Assembly: GCA_018060945.1 (NCBI GenBank)
Contig: JAGOVB010000002.1
Span: 975 to 64,974, forward strand
Direction of reading: 5' to 3'
Length of the DNA stretch: 64,000 nucleotides
Origin: Minisyncoccota bacterium
Lineage (GTDB): Bacteria > Patescibacteriota > Minisyncoccia > Phycocordibacterales > PALSA-1337
Shown: positions 42,843-46,864 of the stretch, piece by piece
Layout of the letters: every line of letters begins with the position of its first letter
Position numbering within the stretch: position 1 is the stretch's first letter
The notes under the pieces: model-generated
Databases searched by the model: none
Told to the model about the DNA's origin: nothing
The model's input: the letters and a program-made list of their open reading frames with translations, nothing else
Translations under genes and position numbers: made by a program

Positions 42843-42955
42843 ATATAAATATTTATTTTCTAATAGACACATTATAGTACACGTACAGTATTTAACAAGT
42901 CGTTTTTATAAAGAGATGCAAAAGATTTGCATCTGTATAATCTTTGTGTATACTC

Positions 42956-43744
42956 ATGTACATGACTCTATACATATTCTTAAGTGCATTCGCCATCATG
43001 CTTGCATCGTTATCAGGTATCTTCTTTGCAAGTAAACATATATCATTGTTTCTCGAAAGAAATCTCAAGGTATTGATCGCCTTCTCTACTGGAGTATTTG
43101 CGATGATTACGTATTCCCTATTAGCCGAATCGCTCGAACACGGACTTAGCATCCCCGCTCTCATTATGAGTGGAATCTTGGGAGTACTATTCCTCGAAAT
43201 TGTTAGCCATATTATCCCTCAGGCTCACCATCACCATGACGCAGTGAGTGATCATGAGCACTCAATGATCGATGCTCGGCGAGTACTTTTGGGTGATGCT
43301 GCACACAATATTGGTGACGGGATCATCCTCGTCCCAGCTTACCTCGCTGGACCACTTATCGGTATTGGTACTACAGTCGCTATTCTCTTTCATGAAATGG
43401 TCCAAGAAATTGCAGAGTATTTTATTTTGCGTGAAGCCGGGTACACGGTAAGAGAAGCTCTTACTAGAAACTTCTTTGCTTCAGGGAGTATCCTCATCGG
43501 AGTCGGTATTGCACTTTTCTTTGCTAATACTGGAAATCTAGAGCTCTACATGCTTTCTTTTGCAGCTGGTAGCTTTATGTACATTATTTTCCGTGATCTG
43601 TTGCCGAGCATTTATAAATCTATAAAGAAAAATAAACAAGTGTATCGTTTCTTGATCGCTGGAATCCTAGGTATGATCGTAATGTTTGGAGTCACTCGTC
43701 TTGCACCACACGAGCAGGAAGAAACTGAGGTCGTGCATGAATAA
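42956..43744 (+). CDS. ZIP-family metal transporter (ZupT-like)
   Basis: It has a His-rich loop (QAHHHHDAVSDHEHS), HNIGDGI and FHEMVQEIAEY. The start is uncertain: TTG 42944, ATG 42956 or ATG 42962. Confidence 0.8.
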   Translation: MYMTLYIFLSAFAIMLASLSGIFFASKHISLFLERNLKVLIAFSTGVFAMITYSLLAESLEHGLSIPALIMSGILGVLFLEIVSHIIPQAHHHHDAVSDHEHSMIDARRVLLGDAAHNIGDGIILVPAYLAGPLIGIGTTVAILFHEMVQEIAEYFILREAGYTVREALTRNFFASGSILIGVGIALFFANTGNLELYMLSFAAGSFMYIIFRDLLPSIYKSIKKNKQVYRFLIAGILGMIVMFGVTRLAPHEQEETEVVHE

Positions 43745-43745
43745 T

Positions 43746-43780
43746 AAAAAACCCCGGCGCACGCGTCGGGGTTGGTGTTT
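43746..43780. terminator. Bidirectional intrinsic terminator
   Basis: AAAAAA-ACCCCGGCG-CAC-GCGTCGGGGT-TGGTGTTTG. Confidence 0.6.
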
Positions 43781-43796
43781 GTGGAAGTAGCCTGGA

Positions 43797-44414
43797 CTAC
43801 CACTCACATGTATGGCTTCCAAAGTACATACTGATCATTTGATCGTATTTGGCACAGTATCCAAAGACCTTGGTCGCCGACCGGTAGCGAAACAGCTTTA
43901 GCCCTGGGTCATCCGGGTTTTCATGCTCGGTAATAATCGAGCTCACGAGCTCGGGATAGTCGGCAGGATCGACGACACTGTAGACATACTTCCAATTCTT
44001 TGCCGCGGCGCGCAGCATCGTAGGTCCGCCGATGTCGATGTTCTCGACCGCAGCCTCAAGTGTACAACCGGCCTTAGTAATGACCTGCTGGAACGGGCAG
44101 AAGTTCACTACCAGGACGCGCAGGTCCACGAAATTCAGAGCCTCAGCTGTTCCGACATGATCCGCATTATCCCGACAATAGAGGAGACTGACCTCAACCA
44201 TGGGATGCAGAGTCTTCAATCGCCCATCGAGACACTGGGGGTAGGACGTGAAATCCTCAATCGGGGTGACGCCCTCGATACCACCAGCCTGCAAGGCCAC
44301 CAAAGTACCGCCAGTTGAAATGATACTGTAGCCGTTTTGCTGAAGCCGACTGGCAAGGTCGACAATGCCAGTTTTGTCAAAGACTGAAAGAAGAGCAAAT
44401 GGTTTATACGCCAT
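43797..44414 (-). CDS. Stand-alone IMP cyclohydrolase-like protein (N-terminal MGS-like half of PurH)
   Basis: 205 aa with ALLSVFDKTGIVDLA, STGGT, DGRLKTLHP, VVNFCPF and ENIDIGGPTMLRAAAKN. No AICAR transformylase domain follows. Confidence 0.75.
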   Translation of the reverse strand: MAYKPFALLSVFDKTGIVDLASRLQQNGYSIISTGGTLVALQAGGIEGVTPIEDFTSYPQCLDGRLKTLHPMVEVSLLYCRDNADHVGTAEALNFVDLRVLVVNFCPFQQVITKAGCTLEAAVENIDIGGPTMLRAAAKNWKYVYSVVDPADYPELVSSIITEHENPDDPGLKLFRYRSATKVFGYCAKYDQMISMYFGSHTCEW

Positions 44415-44499
44415 GGTTTCTAGTATGCTGAAGTTTGCTGCAAATCTCCCCTTTTTGGGAGAAAGTTCGTGTTAAGACTACAGAATGTGCACCAAGGTG

Positions 44500-45021
44500 T
44501 CAAATATGGATTTTCCTCAGTTCTGCACGATGTTTTTTGTATTCGGGCATGGTGATTGCAACTAGATCCCAGAAATCTTGTGAATGATTGAGCTCACCGA
44601 TATGGCAAAGCTCGTGAACGATGATGTATTCTGCCAAATGTTCTGGGATGAGGGCGATTTTATAATTGAAATTTATACTCCCCGTTCTCGAACAGCTTCC
44701 CCATCGTGTCTTTTGATTACGGATACTGATATTTTTGTATGCAAAATTGTATACCTTGTTGTAGTGCTCTATTTTATTCTGCGCGAGGGCACGCGCCTTT
44801 TCTTTGTATAAAAGATAGTCTCTCTTTGTAGTTTTGATCTTTGTAGTAAACGAGCTGAAGTATTGTATCTTGTCCAAAATCCAGCTTTTCTTTTTGGTAA
44901 TAAAGTTTTCAATCAGACTGAGGTCGGTATGTTCGGGTGCAGACACAATAACATTACCTTCACAATTTACGGTGAGTCGTAGGCTACGTGAGCGTTTTGA
45001 AAACTTGAGCGTATATACCAT
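44500..45021 (-). CDS. DUF45/YgjP-type zinc metallohydrolase
   Basis: It has RWGSCS and IIVHELCHIGELNHSQDFWDLV. The start is at MVYTLKF (45021), with TGTTATACT 6 nt upstream. Confidence 0.75.
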   Translation of the reverse strand: MVYTLKFSKRSRSLRLTVNCEGNVIVSAPEHTDLSLIENFITKKKSWILDKIQYFSSFTTKIKTTKRDYLLYKEKARALAQNKIEHYNKVYNFAYKNISIRNQKTRWGSCSRTGSINFNYKIALIPEHLAEYIIVHELCHIGELNHSQDFWDLVAITMPEYKKHRAELRKIHI

Positions 45022-45039
45022 CGATCCAGTATAACAAAA

Positions 45040-45296
45040 GAACTGTCCGGGAGTGGACAGTTCGAAAAGAAAACAAAAGAGCGAGGGTGGTACACAAACT
45101 AAAGAGTCTGTGTACCGAGGAAGGATGAAAGCCGAGCTAACATCCAGAAGAAAGAAAAAGGGCCCGATCGCGGTGACAAAGTCACGTAATACATTCTGGG
45201 CACGCGTGGAGTTAGGACATGCAGTGTCCTTGGTACGTTCCCGAAGGATTGTACCATTGTGAGGGGCCACTTACTTCGATTCAATGATCCCGATCC
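45040..45296 (-). ncRNA. Candidate ~255-nt structured GC-rich RNA
   Basis: It has its own promoter (45303..45331). Hairpins on the minus strand include GGUAC-AAUCC-UUCG-GGAAC-GUACC, GGACA/UGUCC, GUGAC-UUU-GUCAC, GGAUG..CAUCC and GGUACACA/UGUGUACC. The terminal terminator is GAACUGUCC/GGACAGUUC followed by UUUUGUUAU. There is no convincing ORF. Confidence 0.4.
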
Positions 45297-45302
45297 GGAG
45301 TA

Positions 45303-45331
45303 AATATAGCATATATGGTATATAAAATCAA
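45303..45331 (-). promoter_or_regulatory. Sigma70-type promoter of the candidate RNA
   Basis: The minus strand reads TTGATT (45331..45326), a 17-nt spacer, then TATATT (45308..45303). Confidence 0.45.
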
Positions 45332-45365
45332 GTGTATTTTTGCTTGAGTATGTTACAATCATTTC

Positions 45366-46220
45366 ATGAAAAATGTTCTCATATCATTTGTGGTTTTGTT
45401 CGTTTTGACGAGTGGTGCTTTGACAAACTATAGCTATTCAAAATCAAAAGCCCTCAAAGTCAGCCAGCTCGAGCTTGCAAGCACGACAGAGGCATACAGA
45501 TCACAACTCGAACAGGCAAATCGCGAAAAAGAACTGGTGCTAGAGCAGTATGAAAATGAGCGCAGAAAAAATAACAAGTTCGAAGAAGATATCGAGCAGA
45601 TTGCTGACACTGTGGATGATCTAGAGAAACTAAAGAAATTAGATAAAGAACTTTTGCAAAAATATTCAAAGGTATATTTTCTAAACGAACACTATGTTCC
45701 AAAAACATTAGAGACTATCAGTAGTGGATACGTTCTCACTGGTAGAAACCCTCAACAGTTTCATTCAAAAGCGATGAGATACCTAGAAAACATGTTTGAT
45801 GCAGCCAAAAAAGACGGTATCGAGCTTCGTGTTGTCTCTTCATATCGTTCTTTTGCAACACAAGCCATTGTCAAAGCAAATCATAAAATGCTATACGGTA
45901 CTGGTGCGAATCAGTTTTCAGCTGATCAGGGATACTCTGAGCACCAGCTTGGCACGACGATGGATTTGACTACAGCAAAGCTAGGCGCAAATTTTGAGAC
46001 AATAAATAAAGACCCCGCATATACATGGCTCACTGAAAATGCATACAAATATGGTTTCGTACTTTCATACCCAAAGAGTAATGCATATTACATCTTTGAA
46101 CCATGGCACTGGAGATTTGTCGGGACTGACCTCGCTGCTGACCTACGCCGACAAGGAAAATTCTTTTATGACCTAGAGCAACGAGACATCGACGGATACC
46201 TCCTCCACATCTTTGACTAG
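45366..46220 (+). CDS. M15-family D-alanyl-D-alanine carboxypeptidase (VanY-like)
   Basis: 284 aa with a signal/TM segment and a coiled coil. Motifs are SYRSFATQ, HQLGTTMDL and EPWHWRFVG. Confidence 0.8.
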   Translation: MKNVLISFVVLFVLTSGALTNYSYSKSKALKVSQLELASTTEAYRSQLEQANREKELVLEQYENERRKNNKFEEDIEQIADTVDDLEKLKKLDKELLQKYSKVYFLNEHYVPKTLETISSGYVLTGRNPQQFHSKAMRYLENMFDAAKKDGIELRVVSSYRSFATQAIVKANHKMLYGTGANQFSADQGYSEHQLGTTMDLTTAKLGANFETINKDPAYTWLTENAYKYGFVLSYPKSNAYYIFEPWHWRFVGTDLAADLRRQGKFFYDLEQRDIDGYLLHIFD

Positions 46221-46864
46221 CGCCAATCAATCGGTTTTGCTAAATGCGTATTTGCCTTACTAAAGGGTTTCGAACCAAAGAAACCGTCATATGCAGAAAA
46301 AGGCGAAGGGTGTGGTGACTCTATTACAAAATGTTTTGTACGATCTATGATACTTCCCTTTTTCTTTGCATAGTTCCCCCACAGGATAAAAACAATGCCT
46401 TTTCTTTTTTCTGAAAGGGTACGGATTGCCGCATCAGTAAACTCTTCCCAACCTTTTTTCTGATGAGAACCCGGACTATTCGCACGGACCGTGAGCGTCG
46501 CATTGAGCAATAGTACTCCCTGTTTTGCCCAACGGGATAGATCACCATCAGGATATGGCTCATAACCCATGTCTTCTTTTATTTCTTTAAAAATATTTTT
46601 GAGTGACGGAGGTAGTATGATACCAGAGTGCACAGCAAAAGAAAGTCCATTTGCCTGCTTTGGCCCATGATATGGATCCTGCCCGAGGATGACCACCTTC
46701 ACAGTATCAAAAGGACACATATCAAACGCGCGGAAAATGTCTTTCGGGTGAGGAAAGACATTTTCTGTAGCATATTCTTTTTTGACAAAGGCGCTTAAAT
46801 CTTTGAAATATTCTTTTTCTTCTTCTATCTCTAGCATAGGTCGCCACGATGCTTCAACCTTCAT
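46217..46864 (-). CDS. ung: Uracil-DNA glycosylase (family 1)
   Basis: It has VKVVILGQDPYHGPKQANGLSFAV and HPSPFSA. The start ATG 46864 overlaps the upstream stop codon (TAATG). Confidence 0.9.
   Translation of the reverse strand: MKVEASWRPMLEIEEEKEYFKDLSAFVKKEYATENVFPHPKDIFRAFDMCPFDTVKVVILGQDPYHGPKQANGLSFAVHSGIILPPSLKNIFKEIKEDMGYEPYPDGDLSRWAKQGVLLLNATLTVRANSPGSHQKKGWEEFTDAAIRTLSEKRKGIVFILWGNYAKKKGSIIDRTKHFVIESPHPSPFSAYDGFFGSKPFSKANTHLAKPIDWR

Follow-up and report, generated by a model that had tools for sequence, protein, structure and literature searches.

We describe here an intergenic region of a Minisyncoccota bacterium genome, located within a 64,000-nucleotide (nt) stretch of contig JAGOVB010000002.1 (hereafter referred to as the window), which probably represents a separate minus-strand gene for a structured non-coding RNA of approximately 265 nt with its own promoter and terminator. 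The region lies between a gene for a YgjP-like/DUF45 metallopeptidase and a divergent gene for a VanY/LdcB-type carboxypeptidase (Table 1). As judged from the comparison of homologous loci, the putative RNA belongs to a new structured RNA family that is narrowly distributed and lineage-restricted; its known members are seven distinct sequences from six lineages, which all belong to one clade and share one locus. An initial annotation, made from the letters of the window, had proposed an independent RNA at this site on the basis of a GC-rich stretch without a convincing open reading frame (ORF), flanked by a promoter and a terminator. The GC content of the region is indeed raised (0.47-0.51 for positions 45050..45300, as compared to 0.28-0.43 in the flanks) and, as presented below, both signals and the lack of a convincing ORF were borne out by the comparison of homologues.

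Covariation among homologous loci

Homologues of the RNA were found by using the VanY/LdcB gene as an anchor, which led to five other lineages with VanY proteins 59-94% identical to that of the window; the RNA homologues were matched with nhmmer E values of 1e-14 to 1e-71. One further sequence (L001, a contig from JGI 3300043411) is 99% identical to the window, and the most distant locus by VanY identity (L191) was taken from SRR6231180; L200, L202 and L185 come from SRR21621035, SRR25018334 and GCA_013558375.1, respectively. When folded singly, each homologue formed the same helices (z = -5.2 to -8.3). In a structure-based alignment (A5), which was fitted by hand and passed unchanged through MAFFT by N-padding of its gaps, 96.6% of the 443 cells in the 73 proposed pairs were canonical, and 18 of these pairs (33 cells) changed on both sides yet stayed paired; none of 500 shuffles reached these values, and sliding the partners by 1-3 columns on the same alignment reduced pairing to 38-48%. 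RNAalifold, applied to A5, arrived de novo at this structure, likewise with 18 compensatory pairs. As A5 had been fitted by hand, a plain MAFFT alignment of the 3' half of the RNA (A7) was also made; in this alignment 98.8% of cells pair and seven pairs change on both sides, which again was reached by none of 500 shuffles. Homologues thus proved to contain many compensatory changes, which is the kind of support that the initial annotation had suggested should be looked for.

Covariation is clearest in helix P4b, for which the variants GUGAC/GUCAC, GGAGUC/GACUCC, GAGAC/GUCUC and UCACU/AGUGA were found. It is also clear in P2, P3 and P1, in the third pair of hairpin HB (U-A changed to C-G in two lineages) and in the terminator hairpin, where five of nine pairs are compensatory across lineages and 100% of cells are paired.

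Folding alone cannot assign the RNA to a strand, since the plus strand of this region, in the window, folds as well as the minus strand (z = -6.5 for the plus strand). The alignment, however, contains 30 G-U cells as compared to five A-C cells, with 96.6% pairing in the sense and 91.0% in the antisense reading, and for the four most divergent homologues the sense reading gives a better fold than the reverse complement. Together with the promoter and the terminator, these patterns place the RNA on the minus strand of the window.

The same comparison bears on the possibility that the product is a small basic protein, encoded either by a plus-strand ORF (45053..45262; 69 amino acids, rich in lysine and arginine) or as a minus-strand peptide, as two minus-strand frames are open over most of the region. 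The openness of these two frames is attributable to pyrimidine richness, and they are not the same frame across lineages; moreover, 1-nt indels in hairpin HA and in the following linker (L202, L191) break any shared sense-strand frame. The 69-amino-acid ORF showed no Pfam match and no homologue among 5.8 billion clustered proteins, is frame-shifted by 1-nt indels in L015, and is broken in L191, where the antisense strand carries 3-6 stops per frame in all three frames and a longest open stretch of 28 amino acids. Overall, no ORF on either strand was conserved among the homologues, no gene is called at the RNA region in the public annotations of L001 and L002, and the observed substitutions obey base-pairing rules rather than codon rules. 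We therefore consider a protein product extremely improbable.

Transcription signals and predicted fold

A consensus scan of positions 44300..45900 found TTGATT-17-TATATT, with a TG before the -10 hexamer (45331..45303, minus strand), as the sole sigma-70-like match. The sequence CACTTGATTT at the -35 position is invariant in four lineages, while L200 also carries TTGATT and L202 carries ATGATT; TATATT is found 17 nt from the -35 hexamer in all six lineages. The 6 nt that follow the -10 hexamer vary (TACTCC, GACTAC, TATATC, AATACC), and conservation restarts exactly at the predicted +1 G. The 5' end of the RNA was accordingly set 7 nt after the -10 hexamer, where it coincides with the start of conservation, and the 3' end was set from the terminator, which the scan identified as GAACTGTCC-ACTCCC-GGACAGTTC followed by TTTTGTTAT (45063..45040, minus strand) and which, including its U-tract, is present in six of six lineages. 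Transcription would thus start at G 45296, from an extended -10 promoter placed back-to-back with the VanY/LdcB promoter (predicted start sites approx. 70 bp apart), and would be ended by the intrinsic terminator (45063..45040); the resulting RNA may then accumulate as a discrete, stable transcript that acts in trans.

The minimum free energy (MFE) fold of the minus strand from 45296 to 45031 has an energy of -87.4 kcal/mol (z = -5.3; 0 of 200 shuffles fold as well). It contains all of the hairpins that had been listed for the region, i.e., P2 with its UUCG loop, P3 (GGACA/UGUCC), P4b (GUGAC/GUCAC), HA (GGAUG/CAUCC), HB (GGUACACA.../...UGUGUACC) and the terminator. These hairpins had been regarded as local, but they are organized by two long-range stems that had not been listed, P0 (45296-45289/45085-45078) and P1 (45282-45264/45165-45150), the latter formed between a purine-rich strand and a U/C-rich strand. 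The resulting architecture is a three-way core of P0, HA and HB with a four-way-junction domain of approx. 135 nt (P1-P4) that sits between P0 and HA. The extension of P2 capped by UUCG, which the initial annotation had used to characterize the minus-strand reading, does form in this fold but is limited to the window/L015 lineage; in the others, P2 is short and its loop is rich in U.

Conservation is concentrated in the GGAUCGGG 5' end, the GGAUG/CAUCC stem and GCUUU of HA, the CGCG/CGCGAUC of P4 and a 17-nt bulge, as well as in the CCAAG between P2 and P3, the ACC before the 3' strand of P0 and the GG-ACAC/GUGU-CC of HB. The seven pairs of P0 are paired in 98% of cells, with G-U/G-C exchanges at two positions, and the outer stem of HA in 100% of cells, with a single A-U to G-U change; G-U/A-U swaps in HB are workable on the minus strand only. 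HA and HB are joined by linkers of the sequences UUCCUC, UCCUUC, UCUCUC, CUCCC, ACCUC and UCCCUC, which consist entirely of C and U except for the leading A in L191. Between P0 and the terminator lies a U/C-rich spacer of 14 nt (45077-45064), and both of these elements form in every MFE fold. No long conserved unpaired stretch was seen in the comparison of homologues. A candidate pseudoknot between J0 (CAUU) and the bulge (AAUG) was rejected, as it does not covary in L200 and L202.

Table 1. Features of the predicted RNA gene and of the genes around it (positions in the window)
Feature	Position	Strand	Basis or remark
-35 hexamer TTGATT	45326..45331	-	promoter scan
Extended -10 TGcTATATT	45303..45311	-	promoter scan
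Predicted RNA, approx. 265 nt, from +1 (GGAUCGGG...) to end of terminator U-tract	45031..45296	-	signals and conservation
P0, 5' strand (GGAUCGGG)	45289..45296	-	in MFE fold of every homologue
Four-way-junction domain	45150..45282	-	helices P1, P2, P3, P4, bulge and P4b
P1	45282-45264 with 45165-45150	-	2 compensatory pairs
P2, UUCG loop	45256-45231	-	2 compensatory pairs
P3	45230-45214	-	2 compensatory pairs
P4	45206-45203 with 45172-45169	-	CGCG/CGCGAUC conserved
Conserved 17-nt bulge	45202-45186	-	consensus U-N-CCCAUAAUG-Y-A
P4b	45185-45173	-	5 of 6 pairs compensatory
Hairpin HA (GGAUG ... GC-NNN-GC UUU CAUCC)	45123..45145	-	stem sequence nearly invariant
Pyrimidine-only linker UUCCUC, HA to HB	45117..45122	-	5-6 nt in all lineages
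Hairpin HB (GGUACACAGACU-CUUU-AGUUUGUGUACC)	45089..45116	-	100% of cells paired
P0, 3' strand (CUCGCUCU), preceded by invariant ACC	45078..45085	-	MFE folds and alignment
Intrinsic terminator hairpin, 9 bp, 6-nt loop	45040..45063	-	scan; U-tract 45039-45031 follows
TGtTATACT, extended -10 of apparently leaderless DUF45	45028..45035	-	read from sequence; ATG at 45021
VanY/LdcB promoter TGtTACAAT, ATG (45366) 6 nt later	45351..45368	+	read from sequence
Zip transporter	42944..43744	+	gene map
PurH half, MGS/IMP-cyclohydrolase domain only	43797..44414	-	gene map
YgjP-like/DUF45 metallopeptidase	44500..45021	-	gene map
VanY/LdcB-type carboxypeptidase	45366..46220	+	Pfam PF02557; membrane-anchored peptidoglycan carboxypeptidase
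UDG	46217..46864 or later	-	gene map

Distribution, repeated loss and genomic context

The VanY homologues form a graded identity series, and their contigs were examined for the RNA. Full-length RNA was found in L200 (VanY 67% identical), where a DUF45 gene follows that is probably full-length although cut by the contig end, in L202/L203 (61%), where a convergent Zip gene follows, and in L191/L192 (59%), where an N-terminally truncated DUF45 gene follows. L185 (64%) carries a short form of approx. 140 nt without the P1-P4 domain, followed by a convergent gene for 112 amino acids. A separate search of 185,579 GTDB genomes with DUF45 as the anchor returned 43 loci, among which the RNA was found in one only, L015, with 90% identity. 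The DUF45 match of L015 covers residues 56-173 only (85% identity), as the first ~55 codons are deleted, while the RNA, the terminator and the ensuing TGTTATACT are intact. The other loci from this search have no RNA, and those of the Candidate Phyla Radiation (CPR) have short gaps upstream of DUF45; the RNA is thus not an element associated with DUF45.

The VanY/LdcB gene, divergent from the RNA, is the sole neighbour common to every RNA-bearing locus. The initial annotation had placed the RNA by the DUF45 and PurH-half genes; it does lie upstream of both in the window, but its constant neighbour is VanY/LdcB. On the minus strand, the VanY promoter region includes ATGATTGTA(A/G)CA, which is kept in L015 and L191 as well as in two loci that lack the RNA, L182 and L184.

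These loci allow evaluation of the alternative that the region serves the DUF45/PurH-half operon as a cis-acting 5' leader (riboswitch or attenuator), with the terminator deciding on read-through into DUF45. The order of promoter, structured region, terminator and a gene 10 nt further on is the standard layout of an attenuator, a DUF45 gene comes after the RNA in the window, L015, L200 and L191 (four of six lineages), and the window/L015 comparison shows higher conservation in the 5' part of the RNA than in its 3' part. Conversely, the gene after the RNA is convergent in L202 and L185, where DUF45 is lacking, so that the RNA persists with no co-directional gene behind it, as expected from the initial proposal of an independent RNA rather than a riboswitch leader. 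DUF45 has lost its N-terminal part in L015 and L191 while the RNA remained intact, and DUF45 genes with no RNA beside them are found in L182-184 and at approx. 40 other CPR loci. Moreover, DUF45 has its own TGnTATACT-N6-ATG promoter and start, typical of leaderless genes in the window; no alternative antiterminator pairing was seen in the MFE folds; and no riboswitch model, including that of the ZTP riboswitch, matches. With P0 and the terminator formed together in every fold and separated by 14 nt, the layout appears unlike that of a transcriptional riboswitch. As the downstream gene varies and, of the neighbouring elements, only the divergent VanY promoter is constant, the RNA does not appear to be a DUF45/PurH leader, and we regard this alternative as very unlikely.

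Further searches returned no additional members. A metagenome scan with the pattern GGATGNNNGCNNNGCTTTCATCCN{2,6}TCGG gave seven matches, of which one was true (the L185 contig), whereas the other six arose by chance in GC-rich coding DNA; in hindsight this pattern was too strict, as L200 and L202 differ within it. Viral contigs scanned with 15-mer and 14-mer DNA patterns gave chance matches only, and no paralogous copy of the RNA was found within the 64-kb window. A covariance model of the 3' half of the RNA (R1) was applied to 49 sources (318 kb) and yielded neither additional members nor a copy that had moved elsewhere in relatives lacking the RNA. The family is thus narrow, tied to one locus and repeatedly lost.

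A region with no function of its own (i.e., a decaying remnant, a by-product of the VanY promoter, or hairpins that act at the DNA level, such as a bidirectional terminator) would be in line with the repeated loss of the element in close relatives through different deletions, with the lack of the junction domain in L185, and with the very narrow distribution (one true metagenome match and one species among the GTDB genomes). On the other hand, the 18 compensatory pairs have kept pairing through two-sided changes across lineages in which VanY identity to the window is as low as 59-67%, and the distribution of G-U cells depends on the strand, which fits an RNA but not DNA cruciforms. Promoter, +1 position and terminator are retained wherever the element exists. 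In addition, identity between the window and L015 is 85-100% in this element, as compared to approx. 85% in flanking coding sequence; the promoter and the first 60 nt of the RNA are identical at 116 of 120 positions, and the remainder is 77-95% identical. CPR bacteria have tiny genomes with little intergenic DNA; given this scarcity, and as compensatory evolution has kept the RNA, an intergenic RNA of approx. 265 nt likely does something. Absence of any function thus seems most improbable.

Several observations weigh against an independent, functional RNA gene and need to be set beside the evidence above. The RNA is absent at the same locus in L182-184, L186-190, L201 and L204-206, i.e., its function can be spared; in L182-184, for example, DUF45 abuts VanY with a gap of 22-56 nt. 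The VanY of L206 falls in the same 90% cluster as that of L185, and yet L206 lacks the RNA, and the short form in L185 could itself be a copy on its way to loss. The covariation was obtained from six lineages (seven sequences) of one clade and one locus, which gives modest statistical power, and from a principal alignment (A5) fitted by hand to the structure. Finally, the transcript is a prediction, as are its ends and stability, and no partner protein, target or ligand was indicated by any result. As the RNA has been lost repeatedly in close relatives, by different deletions, we consider it accessory or dispensable.

In L206 (2440-2500), the final codons of the Zip gene with its stop (...EHIDFEM*) are homologous to the RNA-promoter spacer and -35 element of L185 (2930-3000). 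This arrangement has the appearance of a recent deletion signature, in which the Zip ORF became joined to sequence of the former promoter as the RNA was removed. The deletion boundary in L186 differs from that in L206.

Possible mode of action

With regard to how the RNA would act, we give close to an even chance to action through its three-dimensional fold (e.g., as a scaffold or in association with a protein) rather than through a long antisense seed. This preference follows from the pattern of conservation only, in that constraint falls on structural elements (the HA stem, CGCG/CGCGAUC, the 17-nt bulge and the CCAAG and ACC junctions), that no long unpaired stretch is conserved, and that a modular domain is absent in one lineage; its dependence on this single kind of evidence also counts against it. 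A more specific proposal, which we put forward tentatively and regard as rather unlikely, is that the RNA represents the founding example of a new modular class of structured RNA specific to Paceibacterota (CPR), comprising the three-way core and an optional four-way-junction domain of approx. 135 nt, that would act through a tertiary fold (as an RNA-protein complex, by ligand binding or by catalysis) and would be functionally coupled to the apparently leaderless VanY/LdcB gene, as the two have back-to-back promoters in each RNA-bearing lineage.

The RNA could instead be a trans-acting regulator, in which the folded body provides stability and pyrimidine-rich unpaired segments pair with purine-rich sites in mRNAs; candidate segments are the C/U linker (45122-45117), the U/C-rich spacer (45077-45064) and the GCUUUCAUCC of HA, as well as CUUUCAUCC. 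The combination of a dedicated promoter, a spacer rich in U and a U-tailed terminator corresponds to the classic layout of a small RNA (sRNA), and the linker is C/U in every lineage apart from the leading A in L191. In addition, GCUUUCAUCC is invariant in six of seven sequences and its complement, GGAUGAAAGC, is similar to the AUG-AAA with which leaderless mRNAs begin; many genes of the window, including VanY, are apparently leaderless with an ATGAAA start. However, the linker has just 5-6 nt, varies in sequence and lies within the three-way junction, and GCUUUCAUCC is paired in HA in every predicted fold. Shine-Dalgarno-like 4-mers are scarce (13 of 94 crude ORFs of the window), and the duplex energies of each RNA with its own VanY 5' region were no better than with shuffled mRNA (RNAduplex, which is a poor test on long sequences). 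The covarying architecture and the conserved bulge also go beyond what an sRNA needs to carry a seed. Overall, we consider base pairing an unlikely mode of action, and a fold-dependent one is favoured here.

Comparison with known RNAs

The initial annotation had not been able to assign the RNA to a known family, and database searches led to the same outcome. Rfam 15 (4227 families) gave no match at gathering thresholds across the whole window, a search of the RNA region at E<=10 gave three spurious eukaryotic or viral matches only (well below threshold), and a search of the five homologous loci at E<=1 gave none. ARAGORN found no transfer-messenger RNA (tmRNA) in the window, where its only predictions were two tRNAs outside the RNA region. 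Likenesses to the T-box sequence (GGGUGGUAC, plus strand), to the CUGGGCA motif of the ZTP riboswitch and to the 5' end of tmRNA were rejected, as they had no covariance-model support and a wrong strand or position; a likeness to the CCAAGG of the signal recognition particle (SRP) RNA likewise had no covariance-model support. Full-text literature searches yielded no description of non-coding RNAs in CPR/Patescibacteria. The start region of VanY (45336-45440, plus strand) matched the plant family mir-395 with 20.6 bits, as compared to a gathering threshold of 56 (E = 0.1); this was judged to be a chance match in AT-rich sequence.

Orphan structured RNA classes, such as the raiA motif RNA and OLE RNA, are known from GC-rich intergenic regions of AT-rich genomes, and reportedly stem from the comparative-genomics surveys of Breaker and Weinberg. 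The RNA described here resembles them in its size (150-270 nt), its covarying helices around multi-way junctions and its conserved bulge and junction nucleotides, as well as in its apparently independent transcription, its intrinsic terminator and its position as a GC-enriched island in an AT-rich intergenic region. Its distribution, however, is much narrower (one Paceibacterota clade, one locus), with repeated loss and a variant without a whole domain. Size, stable-looking structure and apparently independent transcription are also shared with 6S RNA, SRP RNA, RNase P RNA and tmRNA. In contrast to the rod with a central bubble of 6S RNA or helix 8 of SRP RNA, the RNA has a branched three-way core and a four-way junction, and its absence in close relatives is not expected of an essential housekeeping RNA.

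The ZTP (pfl) riboswitch is a known RNA element associated with purH, and here too a structured RNA is found upstream of a PurH-related gene with a terminator next to it. However, no covariance-model match to this riboswitch was obtained at E<=10, the PurH half occurs only in the window/L015 lineage, and the RNA persists without a co-directional downstream gene. Divergent pairs of an sRNA and a gene, such as OxyS/oxyR, GcvB/gcvA and SgrS/sgrR, offer a further comparison, as they share the back-to-back promoters, starts approx. 70 bp apart and a conserved particular neighbour; unlike in these pairs, the partner here is a VanY/LdcB carboxypeptidase and not a transcription factor, and no complementarity of the RNA to its mRNA above that to shuffled controls was found.

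The natural variants of the RNA (long form, short form and clean deletions in close relatives) could guide experiments, and the locus documents back-to-back extended -10 promoters along with widespread apparently leaderless genes in this lineage. Good covariation support in poorly explored organisms has to be balanced against a narrow distribution, dispensability and the lack of a functional lead, and we rate the interest of the family as moderate; being narrow and dispensable, it is unlikely to be of broad importance unless further members turn up in a more extensive search.

Neighbouring genes and apparently leaderless transcripts

The interval between the Zip and VanY genes (43744-45366 in the window) is a hotspot of gene-content change among close relatives (L182-L206). 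Its variants hold DUF45; a 78-amino-acid ORF and DUF45; the PurH half, DUF45 and the RNA; a 112-amino-acid ORF and the short RNA; the RNA alone; a beta-lactamase-like gene, a truncated DUF45 and the RNA; TspO; or nothing. The flank VanY-UDG-DUF378-YibE_F-pilin mostly keeps its synteny among relatives. The PurH half (43797-44414, minus strand; 205 amino acids) comprises only an MGS-like/IMP-cyclohydrolase domain and, of the AICARFT_IMPCHas model, the initial ~60 residues; at this locus it is found only in the window/L015 lineage, and L182-184 have the 78-amino-acid ORF at the corresponding position. The DUF45/YgjP-like genes of L015 (2947-3360) and L191 (2271-2750) lack the first 50-55 codons or so, have differing replacement N-termini and retain the C-terminal HExxH part; these genes could be pseudogenes or shortened functional forms.

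The extended -10 element TGtTATACT, which overlaps the end of the U-tract of the RNA in the window and is arranged in the same way in L015 and L200, is part of the neighbouring DUF45 gene and not of the RNA. That DUF45 is leaderless, with a -10 box overlapping the U-tract, had been part of the initial annotation and is supported, as its TGnTATACT-N6-ATG layout recurs at many genes of the window. At many genes an extended -10-like TGnTAnAnT, often TGATATACT, ends 6-7 nt before the ATG, with no Shine-Dalgarno motif (e.g., at starts 31208, 32969, 26208, 38088 and 45366 on the plus strand and 45021 on the minus strand). Among the 94 crude ORFs of the window, 28 have TAnnnT 4-9 nt before the start and 11 have the extended -10 form, and an ATGAAA start is common among the apparently leaderless genes. 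These data suggest that leaderless mRNAs may be widespread in this Paceibacterota genome, and the TGtTACAAT-N6-ATG layout suggests that the VanY mRNA is likewise leaderless. Two minus-strand ORF starts located approx. 1.5 kb apart (approximately at 2970 and 4460) have a near-identical 30-nt upstream sequence, TGCAGAAAAGGGTATAGTTAGGATA[C/A]TAAA-ATG, which suggests tandem paralogues or a repeated promoter/5' region.

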